DNA of 12,989 nucleotides from a virus. Lineage: Duplodnaviria > Heunggongvirae > Uroviricota > Caudoviricetes. Shown here in pieces: positions 477 through 11,906 of this stretch. A model generated the notes under the pieces. It was not told where the DNA came from. It searched no databases and saw only the letters and a program-made list of their open reading frames with translations. A program made the position numbers and the translations under genes. The stretch lies in IMG/VR virus record IMGVR_UViG_2778261515_000012, one strand, 5' to 3'. The stretch's first letter is position 1. Each line of letters begins with the position of its first letter.

Positions 477-1169
477 ATGTTATATGCATTTAAGCTGGGC
501 AGAAAACTGCGTGGCGAGGAACCTTATTGCCCTGAAAAAGGCGGGAAAGGTGGCAGTTCTGATAAAAGCGCAAAGTATGCAGCAGAAGCTCAGAAGTATG
601 CCGCAGACCTGCAAAATCAGCAGTTCAACACCATCATGAACAACCTGAAGCCGTTTACTCCTCTGGCTGATAAGTATGTCGGCAGCCTCGAGAACTTATC
701 GTCTCTGGAAGGGCAAGGTCAGGCACTTAACCAGTATTACAACTCTCAGCAGTACAAAGATCTTGCTGGTCAGGCTCGCTATCAGAGTCTGGCGGCAGCG
801 GAAGCAACAGGTGGATTGGGTTCCACTGCAACCGGTAATCAGTTAGCAACAATCGCACCAACGCTTGGTCAGCAGTGGCTGTCTGGTCAGATGAACAACT
901 ACCAGAATCTGGCAAACGTTGGGCTTGGTGCTCTGCAAGGTCAGGCAAACGCAGGGCAGACATATGCCAACAACATGAGTCAGATTTCGCAGCAAAGTGC
1001 GGCTCTTGCAGCGGCAAATGCCAACAGACCATCAGCAATGCAATCTGCTATTAGCGGAGGTGCGTCTGGTGCTATTGCTGGGGCCGGACTTGCGAAATTA
1101 ATTGGTTCATCAACTCCGTGGGGGGCTGCGATCGGCGGCGGTCTTGGTCTGCTTGGCTCGTTGTTTTAA
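477..1169 (+). CDS. Ejection (injection) protein, P22 gp7-like
   Basis: ATG at 477 preceded by GGGAGA (466-471). 230 aa, matching the size I recall for P22 gp7 (about 229 aa). Gly/Ala/Gln-rich with a hydrophobic C-terminus. First of three co-directional tightly packed genes whose sizes match P22 gp7/gp20/gp16. Confidence 0.75.
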   Translation: MLYAFKLGRKLRGEEPYCPEKGGKGGSSDKSAKYAAEAQKYAADLQNQQFNTIMNNLKPFTPLADKYVGSLENLSSLEGQGQALNQYYNSQQYKDLAGQARYQSLAAAEATGGLGSTATGNQLATIAPTLGQQWLSGQMNNYQNLANVGLGALQGQANAGQTYANNMSQISQQSAALAAANANRPSAMQSAISGGASGAIAGAGLAKLIGSSTPWGAAIGGGLGLLGSLF

Positions 1170-1179
1170 GGGGTAATCA

Positions 1180-2565
1180 ATGGCTACGTGGCAACAGGGT
1201 ATTAATTCTGGTGGTTTTCTGGCTGGCATCGGTACGCAAAATGAGAATGCGCCAAAGGCAAGCGACATTAACGCAACGCTTGGTCTGATCCGCGAAAACA
1301 ATGAACTGGCTCGCTCAGGTGCAAATAACGTTAGTCTGACCGCGTTACGTGGTCTGGCTGGAGTTGCTGATATTTACAATCAGGAACAGCAACAGAAAGC
1401 GATTAGTGCGTTCAATAAGGTTCACGCTGATGCATGGGCTTCTGGTGATCCATCGGGACTATTTAAGTTTGCCCAGGAAAATCCAGCGTTTGTTGCACAG
1501 GCACAACAGGCGTTTTCCGGTCTTAATGAGCAGCAACGCAACGATATGGGCGATTTAGCCATGAGGGCTAACGTCGCTCTTTCTCAGGGACCGGAAGCCT
1601 ACAGTAAATTCATTACTGACAACAAGGACAGGTTAAATCGCGTTGGTGCTAATGCTGACTGGATGATTCAGACAGGTATCCAGAATCCAGAGCAGCTATC
1701 ACACATGCTGACTACTATGTCTCTCGGTGCACTTGGGCCAGAAAAGGCTTTTGCTGTTCAGGATAAGATGGTTGGTCGCCAGCAGGAGCAGCAAAGAATT
1801 AACGAAACCATTCGCAATAATGACATGACGAATGCGAGGGCTATTAGGGGGCAAAACCTTTCCTATCAGTCTGCAATGACCGGACACGGACTTGCAGCAG
1901 AAAGACTGGCACTTGATAAGCAGAAATTCGGTTTTGAAGTACAACAGGCACAAAAAAAGGCCGAGGAACTTATTAATGCAGCGCCAAAATTATCAGTGAA
2001 CATGGAAAAGGCTATAGAAAAATCAGCAGGTGATGCGGCAGCTAGTCGTAATGCTGCCGATTCAATGACAACGCTCGCTGACACGCTGGAGAAGGAGAAG
2101 CCAACTCCTGGTTTGTTCGGTAACGCTGAAAATATGTTCTCTAAGCTTACGGGGCAAGATAACTACCTCCGAGATATGCGGATTAGATTCAACCAACTAG
2201 CCAATGCGCAGGCAACCAAGCTTCTCCCTCCCGGCCCTGCATCAGATAAGGATATTGAGTTTGCAAGGAAAGGCATTCCAAGCGAAACGGATAATCCAAT
2301 GGTCATGGCTCGATGGTTAAGGGGTATGGCAAAAATGGAAAGTAATAACGCGAAGTTCAACGAGTTTAGGTCAGAGTGGATGAGTGCAAACGGCAGCCCT
2401 GGACAATCTGATCGCAACCGAAACATCATGGGGATGGATGTTAAGAAGGGTGAATCATTGAACTCTGCGGCAAAACGTTTTCTTTCCTCAAGTTATGGCG
2501 ATAGCCAACCTCAACAGCAATTGTCCGATGACGAATTAATTAGCAAATATCTCGGAGGGCAGTAA
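1180..2565 (+). CDS. Ejection protein, P22 gp20-like
   Basis: ATG at 1180 preceded by AAGGGG. 461 aa (P22 gp20 is about 471 aa from memory). Its stop overlaps the next start (TAATG at 2563-2567). Assigned by size and synteny. Confidence 0.75.
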
Positions 2566-4397
2566 TGGCTTATAGTCGTGAACAATTGATGACGGCGTTA
2601 AGGAATGCTGATGCTGCTGGTGATACTGAGGGAGCACGTCGCATTGCTCAGATGCTGTCTTCTGGTGATCAATCCACTCAAAACCAATCGCAGCCAGAAG
2701 AACAATCTCTGGTAGGAAAAGCTACTGACTGGCTCACAGGTGGTCAAAGTGCAGGGCAAATTGCAGAACAGGCTGGTCGTGGTCTGGTAAACATACCATT
2801 TGACGTATTGCAGGGTGGCGCAAGTCTGATTAATGCAACCAGTCAGGGGCTTGGTGGGCCAAAAGTATTAGATGATGTCTATCGTCCAGTCGATCGACCG
2901 ACAGACCCTTATGCGCAAGCTGGAGAAACAATTGGCGGGTATTTAGTTCCAGGAGTTGGAACGGCAGGAAGCATGGCTATTGGATCACTGGCAGAGGCCG
3001 CAAATCAGAAAGGCGATTTCGCACAAAATGCAGCTAAAAATGCCGGAGTTAACCTTGCCGCTCAGGGTGTTCTTTCCGCAGCAGCAAAGGGAATAGGGCG
3101 TGGAATAACGGCTATAAAAGGTGATATTGCGCCAGAAGTGGCGAAGAAAATTGCCACATCAGAATCGATGGGCGTGACACCAATGACATCTGATGTTATC
3201 CCGCCGAAAAATGCTTTCACTCGCGGCCTTACTCAGGATGCCGAGGGGGCTTTACTCGGGACAGGCTCAAAGCGAGCGGAGCAATATGCAACGCGTAGTA
3301 AGCTGGTAAGTAATTATTTTGACCGTTTTGGTGAGTACAACCCTGATGATGTGGTGAAATCTCTGACCACCACGTTAAGGGGGCGGAAGGATGCCGCTGG
3401 CGCTGTTATCAATGACGTCACCAATAAAATGGGTAATGCCGCAGTTGATACCACAAATACCATGAATGCTCTGAATACAGCGATCGCAAGACAGGAACGG
3501 CTTGGGACTTCAGCCAATCAAAGCCTGCTTACATCCTTGCGTAACCTACGTGAAGAATTAGCAAACCCTGCAACTGATTTGGATGTTACGTTTGATCTAT
3601 TGCGTCAGCACAGAACAGCATTTAGATCTAATGTTCAGGGAGATGCTATGGTCTTCCCCAACCAGGCAAAAGCAGCTACCAATATGGTAGAGAATGCAAT
3701 GTCAAAAGACCTTCGTAACGCAGTTGCAAAAAACCTCGGTGCTTCAGACGCAGCAAAATACCTTAAAGCAAATTCCGATTATGCAAACGTTTATAATAAG
3801 GTGCTTAATAAAAACATTGCTAACAAGCTCAACAAGGCAAGCAGTGAAGCCAGTCCTGAACTTATAAATACTGTTGTATTAAGCAGAAAACCATCTGACG
3901 TGAAACGAATCTGGAGCGCATTGGATGATAAAGGGAAAGATGCTATGCGTGCAGCTTACGTCAGCAAAATAGCGGAAAAGGCCGGTGACTCTCCAGCCAA
4001 GTTCATCACTGAAGTTAATAAGCTGAAATCTCAGTCAGGCGGTGAAATTTACAACACTATTTTTTCTGGAAAGCACATGAAAGAACTTGATGCTCTTCAT
4101 GAAGTTCTACAGCAAACAGCAAGGTCAGACACCGCAAATGTAGTAACTCAGACGGGGCAATCGCAAGCCAACAGGATAAGGACGATTGGCGCAACTGCGA
4201 CTCTTGGTGTATCAATGGGGCTTGAGGCTGGTTTTGGTGCAATGATGCGTTTGTATGAGTCCAAAGCCGCAAGGAATATGCTTCTTCGTTTGGCAAACAC
4301 CAAAGCAGGAACGCCAGCTTATGAAAGAGCGCTAAATAATGCTGCAAATGCGATACGCCCTATACTTTCAAGCCAGATTACAGCAGAACAGCAATAA
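2565..4397 (+). CDS. Ejection protein, P22 gp16-like
   Basis: ATG at 2565 preceded by GGAGGG and overlapping the upstream stop by 1 nt. 610 aa (P22 gp16 is about 609 aa from memory). Last gene of the ejection cassette. Confidence 0.75.
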
Positions 4398-4411: not shown

Positions 4412-4897
4412 CTACCTGATATTACTGCTACTGTTGCATGTTACCGTGTTTCCAAATCCTGAATTGCAGTTTGTATATGTGTCAACGCGTGTTGGATAGG
4501 GTTGAGTTATAACAGGCTGTCTCGCTTTTTGCTCGATCGCTTGCATTGTGTTTACAGCCTGATAATTCAATAAAGCCTGCTGGAATGCTTGGCTTTGCGC
4601 TATTTGTTGGGCTTGTTCTTGGCTTTGTAATTGAACATAAAGATTCTGAAGCTCAAGTCTTGCCTGTGCGTCACTTATCTTGCCTTCATCGACACCTTGC
4701 CCGAGCATCTTTGCAGCAAGGACATACAGCTTAGGTGTTGGTGCTGATGCCATGCGTGAGTCGTTCTTCACACTGGCATCAAGGCAATTAGCCATATCGC
4801 TAAGCTTTTGATAGCGTTGTTCGCAACTTGCTTGATAGTCACTTACTTTTGCGCATCCAACCAGCAGAAGCGGGATAATTAACAGTGATTTTTTCAT
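4412..4897 (-). CDS. Prophage accessory lipoprotein (moron); possible superinfection-exclusion function
   Basis: Minus-strand ATG at 4897 with AAGGAG about 10 nt upstream on the minus strand. N-terminus MKKSLLIIPLLLVGC is a signal peptide with lipobox L-V-G-C (Cys15). Gln-rich helical middle, Cys-containing C-terminus. Convergent with gp16 (14-bp gap). Confidence 0.7.
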   Translation of the reverse strand: MKKSLLIIPLLLVGCAKVSDYQASCEQRYQKLSDMANCLDASVKNDSRMASAPTPKLYVLAAKMLGQGVDEGKISDAQARLELQNLYVQLQSQEQAQQIAQSQAFQQALLNYQAVNTMQAIEQKARQPVITQPYPTRVDTYTNCNSGFGNTVTCNSSSNIR

Positions 4898-5269
4898 ATG
4901 GTTAACTCTCCTTAGTTTTGAGCAGGATACCAGATGATACTGTATTGGTGGAGTGGTGTGTGAAAACGTGTCAACGACAAACCATCCACAACTTGGACGA
5001 ATGATTTAGCAAAAAGTGCTATTTTGGGTGTTTAGTGTCATAGAAAAGTGAATAGCTCACTTTTCAACATTGCATGAAACTTGCAGGAAATGTGACATTA
5101 CCTTATAGGTAACTTCGGCGAAAATGCAGTAAATGTGAAACGTAATGATTTAAACGTGTCGAGAAAGTGGTTGTAAGTTAGCCTCTGAAGGATTGATGAC
5201 AGCTTTGTTATGGTATTAAATGCAACTTGACACAGTTGTATACATAGCTGCGGCTATCAAGATGGAGGT
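4898..5269. promoter_or_regulatory. Divergent intergenic control region between the lipoprotein gene and the Panacea-domain operon
   Basis: 372-bp AT-rich non-coding gap between divergent genes. Contains a perfect 9-bp inverted repeat GAAAAGTGA-N5-TCACTTTTC (5043-5065), TTACC-N5-GGTAA (5098-5112), a direct 9-bp repeat AAACGTGTC (4964-4972 and 5152-5160), and TTGACA at 5227-5232. No confident -10 element was found. Confidence 0.35.
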
Positions 5270-5275
5270 ATGTTT

Positions 5276-5719
5276 ATGCTCACTTGTTTTGATGTCGCCG
5301 ACTACTTCTTGGCGCATTGCGATGAAGAAAGTGGCGACATTATCTCTAACCTAAAAATTCAGAAGTTGACGTATTATGCCCAAGGGTTTTCTCTGGTTCT
5401 TCTGGGTAAGCCGCTATTTAATGAGAAAATTGAAGCCTGGATGCATGGGCCAGTAGTTCCTGAATTGTATCGTAAATATAGGGACTGTGGTAACGGAGCT
5501 TTACCTGCGCCAGAAAACTTTGACGCTAAAAAATTCAGTGAAGATGAAATTGAATTGCTGGATGAGGTGTATAAAGTTTATGGTCAGTTTTCTGCCTGGA
5601 AACTGCGCAATATGACTCACGAAGAGCAGCCATGGAAAGATGCTTACATTGAGGGTGCGGTTAGCCAAGAAATCACACTTGATTCTATGAAAGGTTTTTT
5701 CAAAACGTTAATTAACTGA
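5276..5719 (+). CDS. Panacea-domain (DUF4065, GepA/SocA-like) protein; putative antitoxin
   Basis: ORF is open from ATG 5270, but GGAGG at 5264-5268 is spaced correctly (7 nt) for the second ATG at 5276. Protein contains NLKIQKLTYYAQGF...IEAWMHGPVVPELYRKY, matching the signature of DUF4065/Panacea 'phage-associated protein' antitoxins as I recall it. No N-terminal HTH is evident. Confidence 0.7.
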   Translation: MLTCFDVADYFLAHCDEESGDIISNLKIQKLTYYAQGFSLVLLGKPLFNEKIEAWMHGPVVPELYRKYRDCGNGALPAPENFDAKKFSEDEIELLDEVYKVYGQFSAWKLRNMTHEEQPWKDAYIEGAVSQEITLDSMKGFFKTLIN

Positions 5720-5724
5720 CGTGT

Positions 5725-6147
5725 ATGTCTAGAGTTAAGGGAAGAATAAAACAGAGGGATAAAGAGAGCTCTGCTACTGTTGGCCTCTCTATCCATCACG
5801 AATCTCATGATGTAGACAAAAGTCCGCCTGTATTTTCTCTTAGATACCTACAAAAGGGGTATTGCCTAGATTGCTGCCAAAAGCATGAAAAGGCAGCATT
5901 TGCAGATAGGCTGTTCAGGTTAAGTCGGATGTCATGGGATGAGATACGAAAATCTGATAAACACGGGCTTGGGACGGAAAAAATTGCCAGAAACGCGATA
6001 AAAGCTCCGATTCCTAAGCATGTTACTCAAGATGTGGATTTCATTGCGTTCAGATTTTGCTCTAAGGCACCTATGGTTGGTTATAAGCTAGGAGCCACTT
6101 TTTATGTCTTATGGCTCGACAGGGAGTTCAAGCTATACAAGCACTAA
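5725..6147 (+). CDS. Hypothetical protein, partner of the Panacea-domain protein; candidate toxin or effector
   Basis: ATG at 5725 lies 5 nt after the upstream stop (TGA 5717-5719) with no Shine-Dalgarno, suggesting translational coupling. 140 aa, basic, with a Cys/His cluster (GYCLDCCQKHEK). The C-terminus (FIAFRF...TFYVLWLDREFKLYKH) loosely resembles C-termini of RelE/ParE-type toxins. Followed directly by an intrinsic terminator. Confidence 0.55.
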   Translation: MSRVKGRIKQRDKESSATVGLSIHHESHDVDKSPPVFSLRYLQKGYCLDCCQKHEKAAFADRLFRLSRMSWDEIRKSDKHGLGTEKIARNAIKAPIPKHVTQDVDFIAFRFCSKAPMVGYKLGATFYVLWLDREFKLYKH

Positions 6148-6190: not shown

Positions 6191-6394
6191 TTAACCAAAT
6201 CGATCCTTAAAGCGCCTATCGCTGTTGCGTCTCTCCATTTTACTGTTGCAGTACGGACAAAGATGCTGTTTCTTTCCATCGATAGTCCATGTGAAGTACT
6301 TTTTCTTAAATCCAGCACCACAGATATCGCAACTTCTTGGTTTAAACATACTGGCTATGAAGATAAGAACAACAAATCCTATGATCCATTCCAT
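6191..6394 (-). CDS. Small membrane-anchored zinc-ribbon protein (hypothetical)
   Basis: 67 aa with an N-terminal hydrophobic helix (EWIIGFVVLIFIASMF) and CxxC...CxxC (CDIC...CPYC). Ends at the bidirectional terminator. RBS is weak. The overlapping plus-strand ORFs 6104-6412 and 6225-6425 run through the terminator and look spurious. Confidence 0.4.
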   Translation of the reverse strand: MEWIIGFVVLIFIASMFKPRSCDICGAGFKKKYFTWTIDGKKQHLCPYCNSKMERRNSDRRFKDRFG

Positions 6395-6535: not shown

Positions 6536-6721
6536 ATGACCATAGAAGAACGTCTGAACAACATTGAGTTGAACCAAACCCTGCTTGACCAGCGACTTTC
6601 AGATCTTGAGCTTAAAGATCTTGATGCGCAAATATCAGAAGCAGAAGCCAAGCTCTCCAGCTTAAACCACCGCAAGAAGCAAATCCGCAACAGAATTACT
6701 CAGGGACGCGGAAGCTGTTGA
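6536..6721 (+). CDS. Small coiled-coil protein (hypothetical)
   Basis: AAGGAG at 6525-6530 with a 5-nt spacer to ATG 6536. The ORF track's 6488 start is a GTG without an RBS. 61 aa with helical heptad-like sequence. Its 3' end overlaps the convergent ORF 6696-6905 by 26 nt. Confidence 0.4.
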   Translation: MTIEERLNNIELNQTLLDQRLSDLELKDLDAQISEAEAKLSSLNHRKKQIRNRITQGRGSC

Positions 6722-6905
6722 GGTGGGATGCTAGGTCTCTATCGTTAAAATCAAGGCTGCTAATCATTTCATTGTAAATGGCGTTTTTATCTTCCATTGG
6801 CAGTCTTGAGTAAACCAGACACAGAGCATATTTCAGGGAGTTTAGCTCCTTCTCTAATTCTTCCTTGCTTGACGTTTTTGACTTAATAAGCTGTTTTTTA
6901 TTCAT
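6696..6905 (-). CDS. Hypothetical small protein, third gene of the leftward mnt operon
   Basis: Minus-strand ATG at 6905 overlaps the upstream gene's stop (ATGA) and has AAGGA about 6 nt upstream. 69 aa, soluble, helical. Confidence 0.5.
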   Translation of the reverse strand: MNKKQLIKSKTSSKEELEKELNSLKYALCLVYSRLPMEDKNAIYNEMISSLDFNDRDLASHLNSFRVPE

Positions 6906-7135
6906 TTTGCATCCTTACGATTCACATCTTTTGGTAGATACTTGTGAATTGGCCAATCCATGAACGCAAGCGCGAGCCACGTCACCACGTTAAAGCCAGG
7001 GATTGTTAAACATACAGCCATCTTCCAGTCAAAACCGGCCTTTTTGGATATTTTTAACGCAGGTATAAAAAAGATAAAAACGAAAAAAATCACCATAATA
7101 ATCAATGATAATGGCGACCCTTGTTGTTGCTCCAT
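6902..7135 (-). CDS. Small inner-membrane protein (two predicted TM helices), second gene of the mnt operon
   Basis: Minus-strand ATG at 7135, 2 nt after the mnt stop, with GGAGG 6 nt upstream on the minus strand. 77 aa with two hydrophobic segments (LSLIIMVIFFVFIFFIPAL and MAVCLTIPGFNVVTWLALAF). Confidence 0.6.
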   Translation of the reverse strand: MEQQQGSPLSLIIMVIFFVFIFFIPALKISKKAGFDWKMAVCLTIPGFNVVTWLALAFMDWPIHKYLPKDVNRKDAK

Positions 7136-7137
7136 GG

Positions 7138-7380
7138 TTATCCTCCATCTCTTACACGTTTTAACACATCAATAGCTACATCAAACGCCTCTTGCTCAGA
7201 CTTTGTCAGGATTCGACTACTTGAAGGTATTAGCTGCCCTTTATGAATTTTTATCCATAGTTCGATAGCTGAAATAATCTCTGCGTTTATCGAGCGGCGA
7301 TTTGTTGCAGCAATATGCGTAAGTTGCTGTTTTATCTCATCAGGCATTCTTACGTTGAATTGTGGATCATTTCTAGCCAC
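7138..7380 (-). CDS. mnt: Mnt-like ribbon-helix-helix repressor
   Basis: N-terminus MARNDPQFNVRMPDEIKQQL...NRRSINAEI matches P22 Mnt (MARDDPHFNFRMP...NGRSMNSEL, recalled). 80 aa versus about 83 aa for P22 Mnt. AAGGAG RBS on the minus strand. Divergent from arc as in P22 immI. Confidence 0.8.
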   Translation of the reverse strand: MARNDPQFNVRMPDEIKQQLTHIAATNRRSINAEIISAIELWIKIHKGQLIPSSSRILTKSEQEAFDVAIDVLKRVRDGG

Positions 7381-7912: not shown

Positions 7913-8263
7913 ATGAAAAGTATAGCAAAGGCACAAAACGATTTCACCATCTTCAAATTTGGCGACAGTGAAATTCGCGTCATTAACAAGTGCGGCGAGC
8001 CGTGGTTTGTAGCTAAAGATGTTTGTGATGCTTTAGCTTTGACTAACTCACGCAAGGCGCTTACTGCACTTGATGACGATGAAAAGGGAGTAACTTTAAG
8101 TTACACCCTTGGTGGTGAGCAGAATCTAAGCATTGTGAGCGAATCAGGTATGTATACATTGGTTCTGCGCTGCCGCGATGCAGTCAATAAAGGTTCAGTC
8201 CCACACAAATTCCGCAAGTGGGTAACAGCAGAAGTTCTGCCTTCAATTCGCAAACATGGCTAG
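7913..8263 (+). CDS. Antirepressor-like protein, Bro-N domain (N-terminal part, ends at in-frame TAG)
   Basis: AGGA RBS upstream of ATG 7913. Sequence FKFGDSEIRVINKCGEPWFVAKDVCDALALTN...GMYTLVLRCRDAV...FRKWVTAEVLPSIRKHG is a typical Bro-N/AntA N-terminal domain. Ends at amber TAG 8261-8263, inside the conserved IRK-x-G-x-Y motif. Confidence 0.7.
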   Translation: MKSIAKAQNDFTIFKFGDSEIRVINKCGEPWFVAKDVCDALALTNSRKALTALDDDEKGVTLSYTLGGEQNLSIVSESGMYTLVLRCRDAVNKGSVPHKFRKWVTAEVLPSIRKHG

Positions 8264-8323: not shown

Positions 8324-8791
8324 ATGCTGGTAGGAAAGAAAGGACTTCGCTATGACGATGCATACAATATGGTTCATCAGCGTTTTGGTATTGACAGCAT
8401 TGATGAACTTTCAATTGAACAAATCCCGCTGGCCGTAGAGTACATCCACAGGGTAGTGCTTGAAGGTGAGTTCATTGGCAAACAAGAGAAGAAAACCAAC
8501 GAGCTTTCTGCAAAAGAAGCAAACAGCCTTGTATGGTTATGGGATTATGCCAACCGCTCACAGGCATTATTCCGCGAACTGTATCCGGCGCTAAAACAAA
8601 TTCAATCGAACTATTCCGGCAGATGCTACGACTACGGTCATGAATTCTCGTATGTTATCGGAATGGCGAGAGACGTTTTAATAAACCACACACGAGATGT
8701 TGATATCAATGAGCCAGACGGACCAACGAATCTTTCCGCATGGATGAGACTTAAGAATAAAGAATTACCTCCTTCAGTACATAACTACTGA
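8324..8791 (+). CDS. Antirepressor-like C-terminal part (same frame as 7913-8263)
   Basis: Same reading frame as the Bro-N ORF; the only stop between them is TAG 8261-8263 and the 20 codons from 8264 to 8323 are open. No RBS before ATG 8324. The two parts together are 293 codons, about the size of P22 Ant (300 aa). Followed by a terminator. Confidence 0.55.
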
Positions 8792-8891: not shown

Positions 8892-10592
8892 ATGACAGAC
8901 ATTACAGCCAATGTTGTAGTGAGCATGCCTTCGCAACTCTTCACTATGGCGCGTTCTTTTAAAGCTGTAGCTAATGGCAAAATTTATATCGGAAAGATTG
9001 ATACTGATCCGGTAAATTCAGAAAACCAGATTCCGGTTTATGTAAGGAGCGAAGACGGTTCTCATATTGCCGTCTCACAGCCAATAGTTATCAATGCGGC
9101 TGGATATCCTGTATATAACGGGCAGATTGCCAAATTCGTTACTGTACAGGGCCATTCTATGGCTGTTTATGATGCGTACGGTGTGCAGCAGTTCTATTTT
9201 CCGAATGTGCTGAAGTATGATCCTGATCAGTTTGAGAAGAGATTGGCATCTTCTGGAGGGGACAAATTAGTAGGGAGTTCATGGGGTGGGCAAAGCATCT
9301 ATGATGACTACGCTCCAAAAAAACTAACCCGACCTGCCGTTATCATTGAGCCAAGTTATTCTCACTCGGATATTCAGTCGCTACTGAGCTCTGGTGGAGA
9401 TATTTATTTCATGCCAGGAATTTATCCGGTAGATGCAACATATTACTATTACGGGAATACAACGATCCATCAGTCAAGAGACGCTATTTTTTATGCAAAT
9501 AGAGACAATATTACGCTATTTAAAGCTGATCCAGCTGTTGCTGGCACTGATTATATTAGAAATATACAGGTGCATAACCCTCGAATTGATTTTAACGGAA
9601 AGGCTGGAGTTGTCGGAATTGATTTAATCAAATGCCGTAATAACTCGGGCATTTTTGGATTGTGGGTAGATATGCAGTTAGGCCGGGACTGCGTTGGCAT
9701 GAGAGCTGGCTTGCTTTGCTACGGGCTTAAAAATGACAATCCAGAAATAATGAATGGTGGGACAGGATCTACGAGGCTTATCTATCAGAATGGCGCTAAT
9801 GCCTGCAAGATCCTCAATCCCAATTTATACAGTAGTGACCCAGGCGGCGTCCTCCCTGACTATGGCCTAGTGATAAGAAACGGGTTGAATGGAATTGATG
9901 TCGATAATTCGACAACGTTTAACACTACGGCGGTAGTTTTAGATGGTGGTTTTATACAGAACTGTGAACGATATGGAACTATGGATCACGGGGCCATAGG
10001 AACAGAGCTAATGGGGAATACATATTACGAGGCATGTAAAATTGCGGATATCAATCTATCATCATCCAGGGGAGCTTTAGTAAGCAGTTCTCATCACTCA
10101 TCTACAAGCGGCACTGTTTGCATCAGAGCAAAAAACACATCAGGCTGCCGTGTGATGAACGTAAACCTACGCGGAGATCGTTCAACTGGCTTTTATGATG
10201 CAGACAGCAGCAACTCAGGCTTAACAATTGAGCATAAGCGCGACCGCCTAACCGCCCTAATCGGTGATGTGAGTGGTGCTGTAGTGAGTGGTCTGGAAAA
10301 TGACATTCGCACAATTACATTACCAGAACCAGTTCCGGTAAGAAGCGGCCATAGTTCGTTTTACATCCCAGTAACCAACGGGGCAAACATTACCACTCAG
10401 GGGCAGGCTTATGACGGGCAGGAAATCGAGTTGATATTACGGGGAAGAAATTTAACCTCTCTTACATTTTTGGGTAAACCGATCTCATTGGATGGTGTAG
10501 GGGAAGATTACAAGGTCTGTCGTTTGCGAGCTCGATATATGAGCTTGTTTGATGCGTGGCTGATCGGCGATGCGCAATGGAAAGTTGTATAA
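8892..10592 (+). CDS. Tailspike protein: P22-like head-binding N-terminus plus a distinct receptor-binding beta-helix domain
   Basis: GGAG RBS 8 nt upstream. The first 110 aa or so ([42 protein letters not shown]...[15 protein letters not shown]...NVLKYDPDQ) closely match the P22 gp9 head-binding domain as recalled. The rest is Gly/Asn/Ser-rich and repeat-like, as expected for a beta-helix, and unlike P22. 566 aa. Confidence 0.85.
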
Positions 10593-10596
10593 GAAT

Positions 10597-11745
10597 CTAC
10601 TCATCAATCCAATCAGCCCACCACTGCATCATCTCCCGGCGCTTATCCATGTACTGAGCGTGATTGTATATCCCACGAATGGAGCCGCTGTTAGCGTGCG
10701 CCAGTTGCTTCTCAATGGCATCAGCGGGCCATTCGTGCTCGTTCATAATCGTGCTGAATTCATGCCTGAATCCGTGACCGCTTTCCAGACCCTCATAGCC
10801 GATTTGTTTGATCACAAGCAATACCGCGTTCTCGCAGATTGGCTTCTTCTTATCGTTGCGTCCGGCAAAAACAAACTCTGATACTGGTTTAGTGATGGAG
10901 CTTAGCGTAGTGAGAAGTTCAACTACCTGGTCCGACATCGGAACCACATGAATCTTGCGTCCCTTCATCACATTGGCGTCTATGGTGATAATCCTGTTTT
11001 CAAAATCGACGTTCTTCCATTGCATGGAACGAAGCTCTTTTGTTCTGAGGGCTGTGTAGCGTAAAACTTTGGTCGCAATGAGCGATACGATACTTCCTGA
11101 AAATGTAGCCAGTGCTTTGTTGAATGCCGGGATCTGGTCTGCAGGAAGAAACGGGAAGTTCTTCTTGCGGTATCCCTTCATGGCGTCAGCAAGGTCAGGT
11201 GCCGGGTTATATTTAGCCCTACCAGTGACAATAGCGTAACGGAAAACCTCACCGCATCTTCTGCGGGCTTTATTTGCTCGCTCCATTGCACCGCGATCTT
11301 CAAATCTGCGGATTACTTCCAGCAGTTGCATCGGCTCAATATCCTGAATTTCAAGGCCGCCGATGATAGGTAAAATGTCGTCATCAAACATTTTTGCAAG
11401 TTCAGTCGCATACCCTACTGACCAGACTTGCTTCTTGTGCTCGTACCATTCCTTGTAAATGGCGCTAAAGGAGTTGTTGTTAGACGAAGCCTTTTTCGCT
11501 TTTACCGGATCGATGCCAACCGAGATGTCTTTCCTCGCAGTCCATGCTTTATCCCTTGCCTCCTGCAAAGTCATAAGCGGATATTTTCCGACGGTAAGGA
11601 TTTTCTCCTTACCGTCAATCTTGTAGCGAAGCTGCCATACCTTTTTCCCGGATACAGGGACATAAAGGTACAGGCCATTACCATCGAGAAGGCGGTATGG
11701 TTTTTCTTTCGGCTTTGCTGCTTCAATCTGCTTAACGGTGAGCAT
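10597..11745 (-). CDS. int: Tyrosine integrase, P4/IntS type
   Basis: ORF open from GTG 11781, but the conserved P4-type N-terminus begins at Met13 (ATG at 11745): MLTVKQIEAAKPKEKPYRLLDGNGLYLYV...GKKVWQLRYKIDGKEKILTVGKYP. The C-terminal half carries the catalytic-domain context (HGFRHEF...IRGIYNHAQY). Adjacent to a tRNA gene. Confidence 0.9.
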   Translation of the reverse strand: MLTVKQIEAAKPKEKPYRLLDGNGLYLYVPVSGKKVWQLRYKIDGKEKILTVGKYPLMTLQEARDKAWTARKDISVGIDPVKAKKASSNNNSFSAIYKEWYEHKKQVWSVGYATELAKMFDDDILPIIGGLEIQDIEPMQLLEVIRRFEDRGAMERANKARRRCGEVFRYAIVTGRAKYNPAPDLADAMKGYRKKNFPFLPADQIPAFNKALATFSGSIVSLIATKVLRYTALRTKELRSMQWKNVDFENRIITIDANVMKGRKIHVVPMSDQVVELLTTLSSITKPVSEFVFAGRNDKKKPICENAVLLVIKQIGYEGLESGHGFRHEFSTIMNEHEWPADAIEKQLAHANSGSIRGIYNHAQYMDKRREMMQWWADWIDE

Positions 11746-11906
11746 GGGTAAAAATCCGGTGGGTAAAATTATTTTATCCACTTTTTACCCGTCATGGAGT
11801 GCGGCTGTCAACGATCTGACGCGAACCATTACGAACTGTGAATCTACGGAAGGCTTGATATTCAGGGGATTTTGCGGACTGGTACGGATGGGAGCGAACT
11901 GATAAA

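Follow-up and report, generated by a model that had tools for sequence, protein, structure and literature searches.

A predicted lipoprotein gene occupies the sieA position of Enterobacterales P22-like prophages

The 12,989-nucleotide (nt) virus record IMGVR_UViG_2778261515_000012 (hereafter the window, meaning the whole stretch of DNA analysed) carries on its minus strand a gene for a predicted lipoprotein. The prophage whose right arm makes up the window is P22-like (Lederbergvirus-type) and sits at tRNA-Arg(CCT), where a yfdC-like gene adjoins it. We find that the lipoprotein gene behaves as a discrete, horizontally exchanged 520-bp cassette in the slot between gene 16 and the tailspike gene of Enterobacterales P22-like prophages, the slot in which P22 carries its exclusion gene sieA and of which SieA is, to our knowledge, the sole characterised protein. 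The product is best explained as a stand-alone envelope protein made by the prophage, and we tentatively propose that it blocks the entry of superinfecting phages. Prophage-expressed envelope lipoproteins are familiar as a kind, and this family is already catalogued, uncharacterised, as PHROG 6067; the novelty lies in the fold, the architecture and the placement in the sieA slot. Searches of the literature by accession, PHROG identifier and topic found no published description of the family.

A real gene in an exchanged cassette

We compared the gene across 85 loci, comprising 80 IMG/VR contigs and annotated records, and found it to be a real gene under strong purifying selection. The 85 copies represent 57 alleles, in which variable sites are distributed 20/13/89 by codon position, the ratio of nonsynonymous to synonymous substitution (dN/dS) comes to 0.048, and internal stops are absent from every copy. 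The phrog_6067 profile is matched end to end (E 1.6e-110), residues 1-161 of the protein aligning with all 161 profile positions, and we found 94 homologues. That every record annotates the gene only as a hypothetical protein would suit a chance open reading frame or a pseudogene without a product. The conservation pattern refutes this explanation, and the retention of the gene from E. coli to Proteus (55% identity), a confident structure model and transcription also speak against it, leaving it practically no chance of being right.

Alignment of these loci by blastn showed where the shared homology begins and ends. On the downstream side the boundary falls at position 4413, in the stop codon, in 60 loci; on the upstream side 62 of the 84 aligned loci share an end at 4932, which lies 35 nt before the ATG (11 others end at 4920 and 8 at 4904). 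The intergenic sequence past 4932 is particular to this prophage, and the upstream neighbours differ among loci, being mostly an mnt-like gene or the tailspike gene directly. At the other end a large convergent open reading frame lies within 2-188 nt in 83 of the 85 loci. In the window this is the gp16 homologue, so that the lipoprotein gene and the last ejection gene converge from opposite strands, as the first-pass annotation of this DNA had read; the two stop codons are 14 nt apart, and a hairpin across both of them is not significant (z -1.36). With its sharp edges at 4413 and 4932, its absence from most phage records and its orientation against the late genes, the gene has the form of a discrete insert. 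The claim that it is AT-rich relative to the structural genes proved marginal, as its GC content of 0.438 compares with 0.465 for the whole of gp16 and 0.434 for the last 800 nt of gp16, which leaves no real contrast.

The slot is kept across genera. The gene occupies the same position in the phages Gally, vB_EcoP-720R6 and VSe13 (95-97% identity) and in Proteus phage Brookers (55%), and the slot is retained in P22-like prophages of Morganella, Yersinia, Serratia and Proteus; in Morganella and Yersinia it is the sole gene between gp16 and the tailspike gene, lying antisense. It is also intact in two decayed prophages (L005 and L096). Carriers make up 5 of 50,697 phage records, P22 and HS1 being without it. 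P22-like prophages rank with the most common prophages of E. coli, Shigella and Salmonella. Complete E. coli genomes hold the lipoprotein gene in 186 of 5426 cases (190 places, with two copies in four genomes), while the P22-type (type A) sieA is found in 35 and the HS1-type (type B) in 21, together 56 of 5426. The lipoprotein gene is therefore about three times as frequent as both sieA types combined. An earlier prevalence of 369 genomes was dropped because the gp16 and Panacea flanks of the query had inflated the count. The gene is present throughout O26:H11 enterohaemorrhagic E. coli (EHEC) and in the Crohn's-associated adherent-invasive E. coli (AIEC) strain LF82.

The first-pass annotation had tentatively likened this site to that of P22 sieA, and the analogy is exact in position and orientation. 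P22 sieA (BK000583, 13336-13830) lies on the minus strand and has an annotated promoter of its own; 22 nt separate it from the stop of gene 16. The type B sieA of the HS1 prophage is placed in the same way. Both genes thus sit right after gene 16, convergent with it and before immI and the tailspike gene, and each is a single stand-alone gene for a prophage-expressed envelope protein of similar size (161 amino acids for the lipoprotein, 162-164 for SieA). The proteins themselves differ. BLASTP gave no alignment between them at E up to 100, the SieA motif FxRYPxEAxxFNK is absent from the window and the 85 related loci, and no sieA gene was found in the 85 loci that carry the lipoprotein gene. 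SieA, of which types A, B and C and the shared motif have been described (Leavitt et al. 2024, PMC10883804), is integral to the inner membrane, where it has 3-4 transmembrane (TM) helices, and its FxRYPxEAxxFNK motif is cytoplasmic. It blocks the P22-like ejection channel at the inner membrane (PMC10883804). The lipoprotein has instead a cleavable lipoprotein signal, a predicted soluble helical fold, a predicted outer-membrane anchor and no TM segment (maximum KD19 hydropathy 1.45 against a threshold of 1.6, compared with three regions in P22 SieA). The exclusion activity of SieA is demonstrated, that of the lipoprotein putative.

Predicted architecture and relatives of the lipoprotein

The N-terminus of the protein reads MKKSLLIIPLLLVGC and continues AKV, with two lysines, an 11-residue hydrophobic core, the lipobox L-V-G-C at residues 12-15 and alanine at position +2 from Cys15. 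This is the charged n-region, short h-region and lipobox (MKK-SLLIIPLL-LVGC) of a bacterial lipoprotein processed by signal peptidase II, and both the lipobox and the strong ribosome-binding site seen in the first reading of the sequence were confirmed (Table 1). A lipobox is present in 206 of 236 homologues; the +2 residue is alanine in 155 and aspartate in none of the 206. Since lipoproteins of E. coli escape Lol through an aspartate at +2, this protein should be anchored in the outer membrane and face the periplasm. The mature form would have 147 residues, a mass of ~16.2 kDa and a pI of 7.8. Cysteines occur at positions 15, 25, 38, 144 and 154; Cys15 is invariant in alignment A2 and nearly so (at least 90%) in alignment A7, the Cys25/Cys38 pair is invariant in the alignments, and Cys154 is invariant in A2.

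We modelled the protein with AlphaFold using a 142-sequence alignment (mean predicted local distance difference test, pLDDT, 89). The model places helices at residues 18-28, 32-45, 47-51, 53-70 and from 76 onward, with residues 18-70 and the beginning of the next helix packed into a compact head. The Gln-rich C-terminal half of the long helix that follows (about 96-125) forms a spacer, which distant relatives lack or have in shortened form, and a Pro-rich linker leads from it to a C-terminal hairpin with strands 139-146 and 152-159 (block pLDDT 68 for residues 131-140, 87 for 141-150 and 84 for 151-160). Of the 236 homologues, 182 have the C-terminal Cys loop; 100 of these 182 end in an aromatic residue and 55 in Arg.

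Homology and structure searches found no sequence or fold relation to SieA, or to the phage lipoproteins Cor, Llp and Bor. Scans against Pfam (E up to 0.01) and NCBIfam assigned no family, and searches of the PDB with 46- and 142-sequence profiles returned only signal-peptide or coiled-coil noise. GspK was considered as an identity and rejected as a spurious low-complexity match (18.9 bits against a cut-off of 130); the name 'GspK' given to one homologue in a database is the same artefact. The match to Lpp (Braun's lipoprotein) is a generic single-helix match, the lipoprotein differing from Lpp by its additional head domain and Cys-loop hairpin and by having no C-terminal Lys.

The Llp and Cor comparison, which the first-pass annotation had raised, leads to one alternative function. 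T5 Llp and the Cor proteins of phi80, N15 and HK022 are phage lipoproteins of about 60-80 amino acids that inactivate FhuA. Like our protein, they are small phage lipoproteins predicted or shown to be at the outer membrane, contain disulfides and act alone. By analogy, the lipoprotein might mask a receptor by binding an outer-membrane protein on its periplasmic side (OmpA and OmpC, reported as secondary receptors for Sf6, are examples) and so block adsorption or triggering rather than the channel. A predicted outer-membrane lipoprotein with conserved disulfide-stabilised elements would be consistent with this, a near-invariant sequence beside variable ejection proteins is easier to reconcile with a conserved target in the host than with one in the phage, and relatives in non-phage contexts suit a host-protein ligand. 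Against it, the only match to Llp (PDB 8a60_B) is over the signal peptide at E 0.17, no Pfam family is matched, and the 147-residue mature protein is much larger than Llp or Cor, mostly helical and provided with a long spacer helix; moreover, its carrier phages are O-antigen-specific podoviruses that use their tailspikes, whereas those of Llp and Cor are FhuA-dependent siphoviruses. We consider receptor masking unlikely.

Further relatives were collected in an exhaustive profile search, in which 245 cluster representatives reached E 1e-3 or better. Lipoproteins of 125-140 amino acids that have the head domain and the TxC-x3-G-x4-C hairpin without the Gln-rich spacer make up most of them. Distant relatives with 35-40% identity (L088 7974-8360, L089 485-850 and L090 7995-8384) come from metagenome-assembled Muproteobacteria, Desulfatitalea and Burkholderiales genomes and lie outside P22-like prophages: one adjoins a TetR-HlyD-AcrB-OEP efflux operon of the resistance-nodulation-division (RND) type, a second shares its chromosomal region with a PEP carboxylase gene, and a third is flanked by a small terminase subunit gene and a gene for an MmeI-type restriction enzyme. 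PHROG matches had placed distant relatives beside ejection-like genes, a reading we dropped when Pfam identified these neighbours as the AcrB/TolC/TetR efflux operon and the MmeI-type enzyme; the PHROG matches mislead because PHROGs include AcrB and MmeI homologues. No conserved partner gene was found among the distant loci. Only one of their contigs, L087 from IMG/VR, looks like the last part of a podovirus late operon, with the relative ending a convergent operon of 244-, 455- and 692-residue proteins after an Hc3-like head-closure protein; its large proteins have no similarity to P22 gp16 or gp20. Because distant relatives sit in these other contexts, the strict association with the slot is limited to the Enterobacterales clade.

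Expression and candidate functions

A copy of the lipoprotein 97.5% identical to that of the window is encoded by the Gally prophage of E. coli LF82 (GALLYPH_13 = LF82_138). In stationary LB culture its transcript reaches log2(fpkm+5) values of 6.29 and 5.96 (fpkm, fragments per kilobase per million), equal to 70 normalised counts (S1 Table, PMC9928086). This is 4.5-fold above the prophage median of 15.6, the authors' cut-off for a moron being 5-fold (PMC9928086), so that by their own table the gene narrowly misses the threshold. Conditions B1 and B6 give 7.9-8.2, MB1 gives 10.3 and macrophages at 6 h give 8.5-8.7, while the injection genes beside it are silent, the adjoining one staying at 3.6-4.1 (PMC9928086). 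The only Gally genes above LF82_138 are the C2 repressor and, in most conditions, GALLYPH_14 (PMC9928086). Since the Gally sequence upstream of about -25 differs from that of the window, promoter details may not transfer from one to the other.

GALLYPH_14 is itself of note as a 139-residue hypothetical protein (L001 5447-5866) encoded by the divergent neighbour of the Gally lipoprotein gene. It reaches log2 values of 9.8-11.0 in B1, B6 and MB1, stronger than LF82_138 in conditions outside LB (S1 Table, PMC9928086), and is likewise not listed by the moron analysis, which was based on LB (PMC9928086).

The increase of the Gally copy from log2 about 6.1 in LB to 10.3 in MB1 and 8.6 in macrophages at 6 h would suit a phage-independent lysogenic-conversion factor, comparable to Bor/Iss, that aids survival under macrophage, serum or envelope-damage stress. 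The intact gene in decayed prophages, its presence throughout O26:H11 EHEC and in LF82, and relatives in chromosomal contexts point the same way. However, all five right-end Gally genes, tailspike included, rise in macrophages (PMC9928086), and because they rise together the induction may be regional de-silencing. The lipoprotein also has no homology to lambda Bor, matching neither the Bor family of Pfam nor Iss nor any other virulence family, and a conversion role leaves its strict retention in one slot beside the ejection genes across genera unexplained. Such a role is in our view rather unlikely, if credible; were it correct, the gene would be an unrecognised lysogenic-conversion gene in pathogenic lineages.

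Our preferred proposal, offered tentatively, is that the lipoprotein is a non-homologous entry blocker, a functional counterpart of SieA acting from the outer-membrane side. It draws on position, predicted localisation and expression. In this proposal the protein would be lipidated at Cys15 and carried by Lol into the outer membrane's inner leaflet, placing the disulfide-braced helical head beneath that membrane, and the 50-residue helix would project the disulfide-stapled hairpin into the periplasm. A helix of this length spans ~7.5 nm, comparable to Braun's lipoprotein. There the hairpin would most likely interfere with an entry step of superinfecting phages, which could be the assembly of the gp7/gp20/gp16 trans-envelope channel, built from the outer membrane inward, or the use of an outer-membrane protein from its periplasmic side. 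The P22-like channel is ~50 nm long and extends from the tail hub (gp10) in the sequence gp7*, gp20, gp16 (PMC13622523). The closest precedent for the proposed mechanism is the Ltp lipoprotein of the Gram-positive prophage TP-J34, which is reported to block DNA injection via the tape-measure protein (cited in PMC10883804). Ltp resembles our protein as a prophage-expressed helical lipoprotein proposed or shown to meet a channel-forming protein outside the cytoplasmic membrane; it differs in its Gram-positive host and cytoplasmic-membrane anchor, and the lipoprotein described here is without any Pfam match.

Extending this proposal, the junction of gene 16 and the tailspike gene could be a dedicated entry-blocker slot filled by unrelated proteins. 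The lipoprotein would then be an unrecognised class of exclusion protein that jams the nascent gp7/gp20 tunnel with a Cys-stapled hairpin held on a ~7-nm helix, and the commoner solution in E. coli (186 against 56 of 5426 genomes); we regard this wider version as somewhat doubtful. An entry blocker in this position would provide a second and structurally tractable means of probing the passage of podovirus ejection proteins through the periplasm, and a resistance determinant of relevance to phage therapy and typing.

Several results weigh against the entry-blocker proposal. The first-pass annotation had called the gene a moron, which holds for its exchange as a discrete cassette and for expression in a lysogen (seen in the 97.5% identical Gally copy only). 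As to signals of its own, a consensus sigma-70 scan found no promoter and no terminator was found 3' of the gene, and the cassette edge carries the extended -10-like candidate listed in Table 1. The authors of the LF82 study also describe Gally as without a moron and did not score LF82_138 as one (PMC9928086). None of the 5027 PADLOC-DB models matched the protein at E up to 0.1, sequence scans revealed no similarity to known exclusion proteins, the fold search gave no informative neighbour, and the literature found holds no exclusion, adsorption or other functional datum for any family member. At least five clusters of gp16-like neighbours, 14-59% alike, adjoin lipoproteins that are 97-100% identical across the same loci, so there is no sign of co-evolution with the ejection proteins. 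Carriage is no bar to double lysogeny, since four genomes hold two copies, and the distant relatives outside P22-like contexts imply that the fold is not intrinsically tied to phage entry.

We also considered an accessory role at the envelope during the lytic cycle, in which the lipoprotein would protect progeny or the infected cell late in infection or modulate lysis. P22 sieA is itself up-regulated during induction (PMC10883804), and the lipoprotein gene of the Morganella and Yersinia prophages lies antisense, enclosed by gene 16 and the tailspike gene; both observations would fit. On the other hand, the gene is transcribed against the late operon and, judging by the Gally copy, is already on in uninduced lysogens; it is dispensable, given how few phage records carry it; and such phages have their lysis cassette elsewhere, as in the HS1 layout. 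A lytic role therefore appears improbable.

Neighbouring genes of the prophage right arm

The features of the lipoprotein gene and of the surrounding right arm are collected in Table 1.

Table 1. Positions of the lipoprotein gene, its predicted parts and the neighbouring features in the window
Feature	Positions	Strand	Remarks
gp7 ejection gene	477-1169		Pfam PF25688
gp20 ejection gene	1180-2565		Pfam PF16928
gp16, last ejection gene	2565-4397	+	P22 gene 16 homologue; phrog_770 'DNA transfer protein', E 7e-263
Lipoprotein coding sequence, including stop	4412-4897	-	161 aa; ATG start
Mobile cassette	4413-4932	-	520 bp; shared homology unit of related prophages with differing flanks
C-terminal beta-hairpin (predicted)	4421-4483	-	Residues 139-159; Cys144/Cys154 loop, motif TxC-x3-G-x4-C
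Single long helix (predicted)	4523-4672	-	Residues 76-125
Helical head domain (predicted)	4613-4846	-	Residues 18-95; block pLDDT 94-98; probable Cys25/Cys38 disulfide
Lipobox LVGC	4853-4864	-	Cys15 codon 4853-4855; +2 Ala codon 4850-4852
Lipoprotein signal peptide and lipidated Cys15 (predicted)	4853-4897	-	Signal peptide, residues 1-14
Shine-Dalgarno AAGGAG	4908-4913	-	10 nt upstream of ATG; kept in E. coli and Salmonella copies
Extended -10-like element TGgTATCCT	4924-4932	-	Upstream edge of cassette; candidate promoter
AT-rich intergenic region	4898-5269		372 nt, GC 0.387; between lipoprotein gene and divergent Panacea-domain gene
immI-like region	Right of lipoprotein gene		Arc/Mnt-like genes, BRO-N, P22_AR_C
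Panacea/SocA-like antitoxin-domain gene	5270-5719	+	PF13274, E 2e-24
phrog_8366 gene	5725-6147	+	140 aa
67-aa open reading frame	6191-6394	-	
mnt operon stretch (whole)	6696-7380	-	
69-aa protein gene	6696-6905	-	phrog_16466
77-aa protein gene	6902-7135	-	phrog_32536
Mnt/Arc-like gene	7138-7380	-	
BRO-N	7913-8263	+	PF02498
P22_AR_C	8324-8791	+	PF10548
Tailspike gene	8892-10592		P22 head-binding domain (Head_binding)
Integrase gene	10597-11781		

Divergent from the lipoprotein gene lies the gene for a Panacea/SocA-like antitoxin-domain protein, followed 5 nt later by the start of a gene for a 140-residue phrog_8366 protein with weak matches to the C-terminus of PADLOC NsnC (E 1.8e-7) and to NCBIfam MAG6450 (E 3.5e-5). 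Together the two look like an inserted toxin-antitoxin or defence pair. Among the 85 related loci the pair was found in one other only (L005).

Within the mnt operon stretch, the Mnt/Arc-like gene is followed by that of a 77-residue protein with two predicted TM helices and then by that of a 69-residue protein. The 77-residue membrane protein could supply another prophage-expressed envelope function. The 67-residue open reading frame, also on the minus strand, combines an N-terminal hydrophobic helix with a CxxC...CxxC zinc-ribbon motif and was assigned to no family.

The integrase gene starts within 5 nt of the tailspike stop in this window (10593-10597). Because it follows the tailspike gene directly, with no acyltransferase gene between, the usual serotype-conversion gene is missing here; related argW prophages have an O-antigen acyltransferase gene between tailspike and integrase (L005 14797-16341; L006 10251-11393). 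The antirepressor of the window appears to be split into separate BRO-N and P22_AR_C reading frames, and in related loci it is annotated as one product of 262-292 amino acids.
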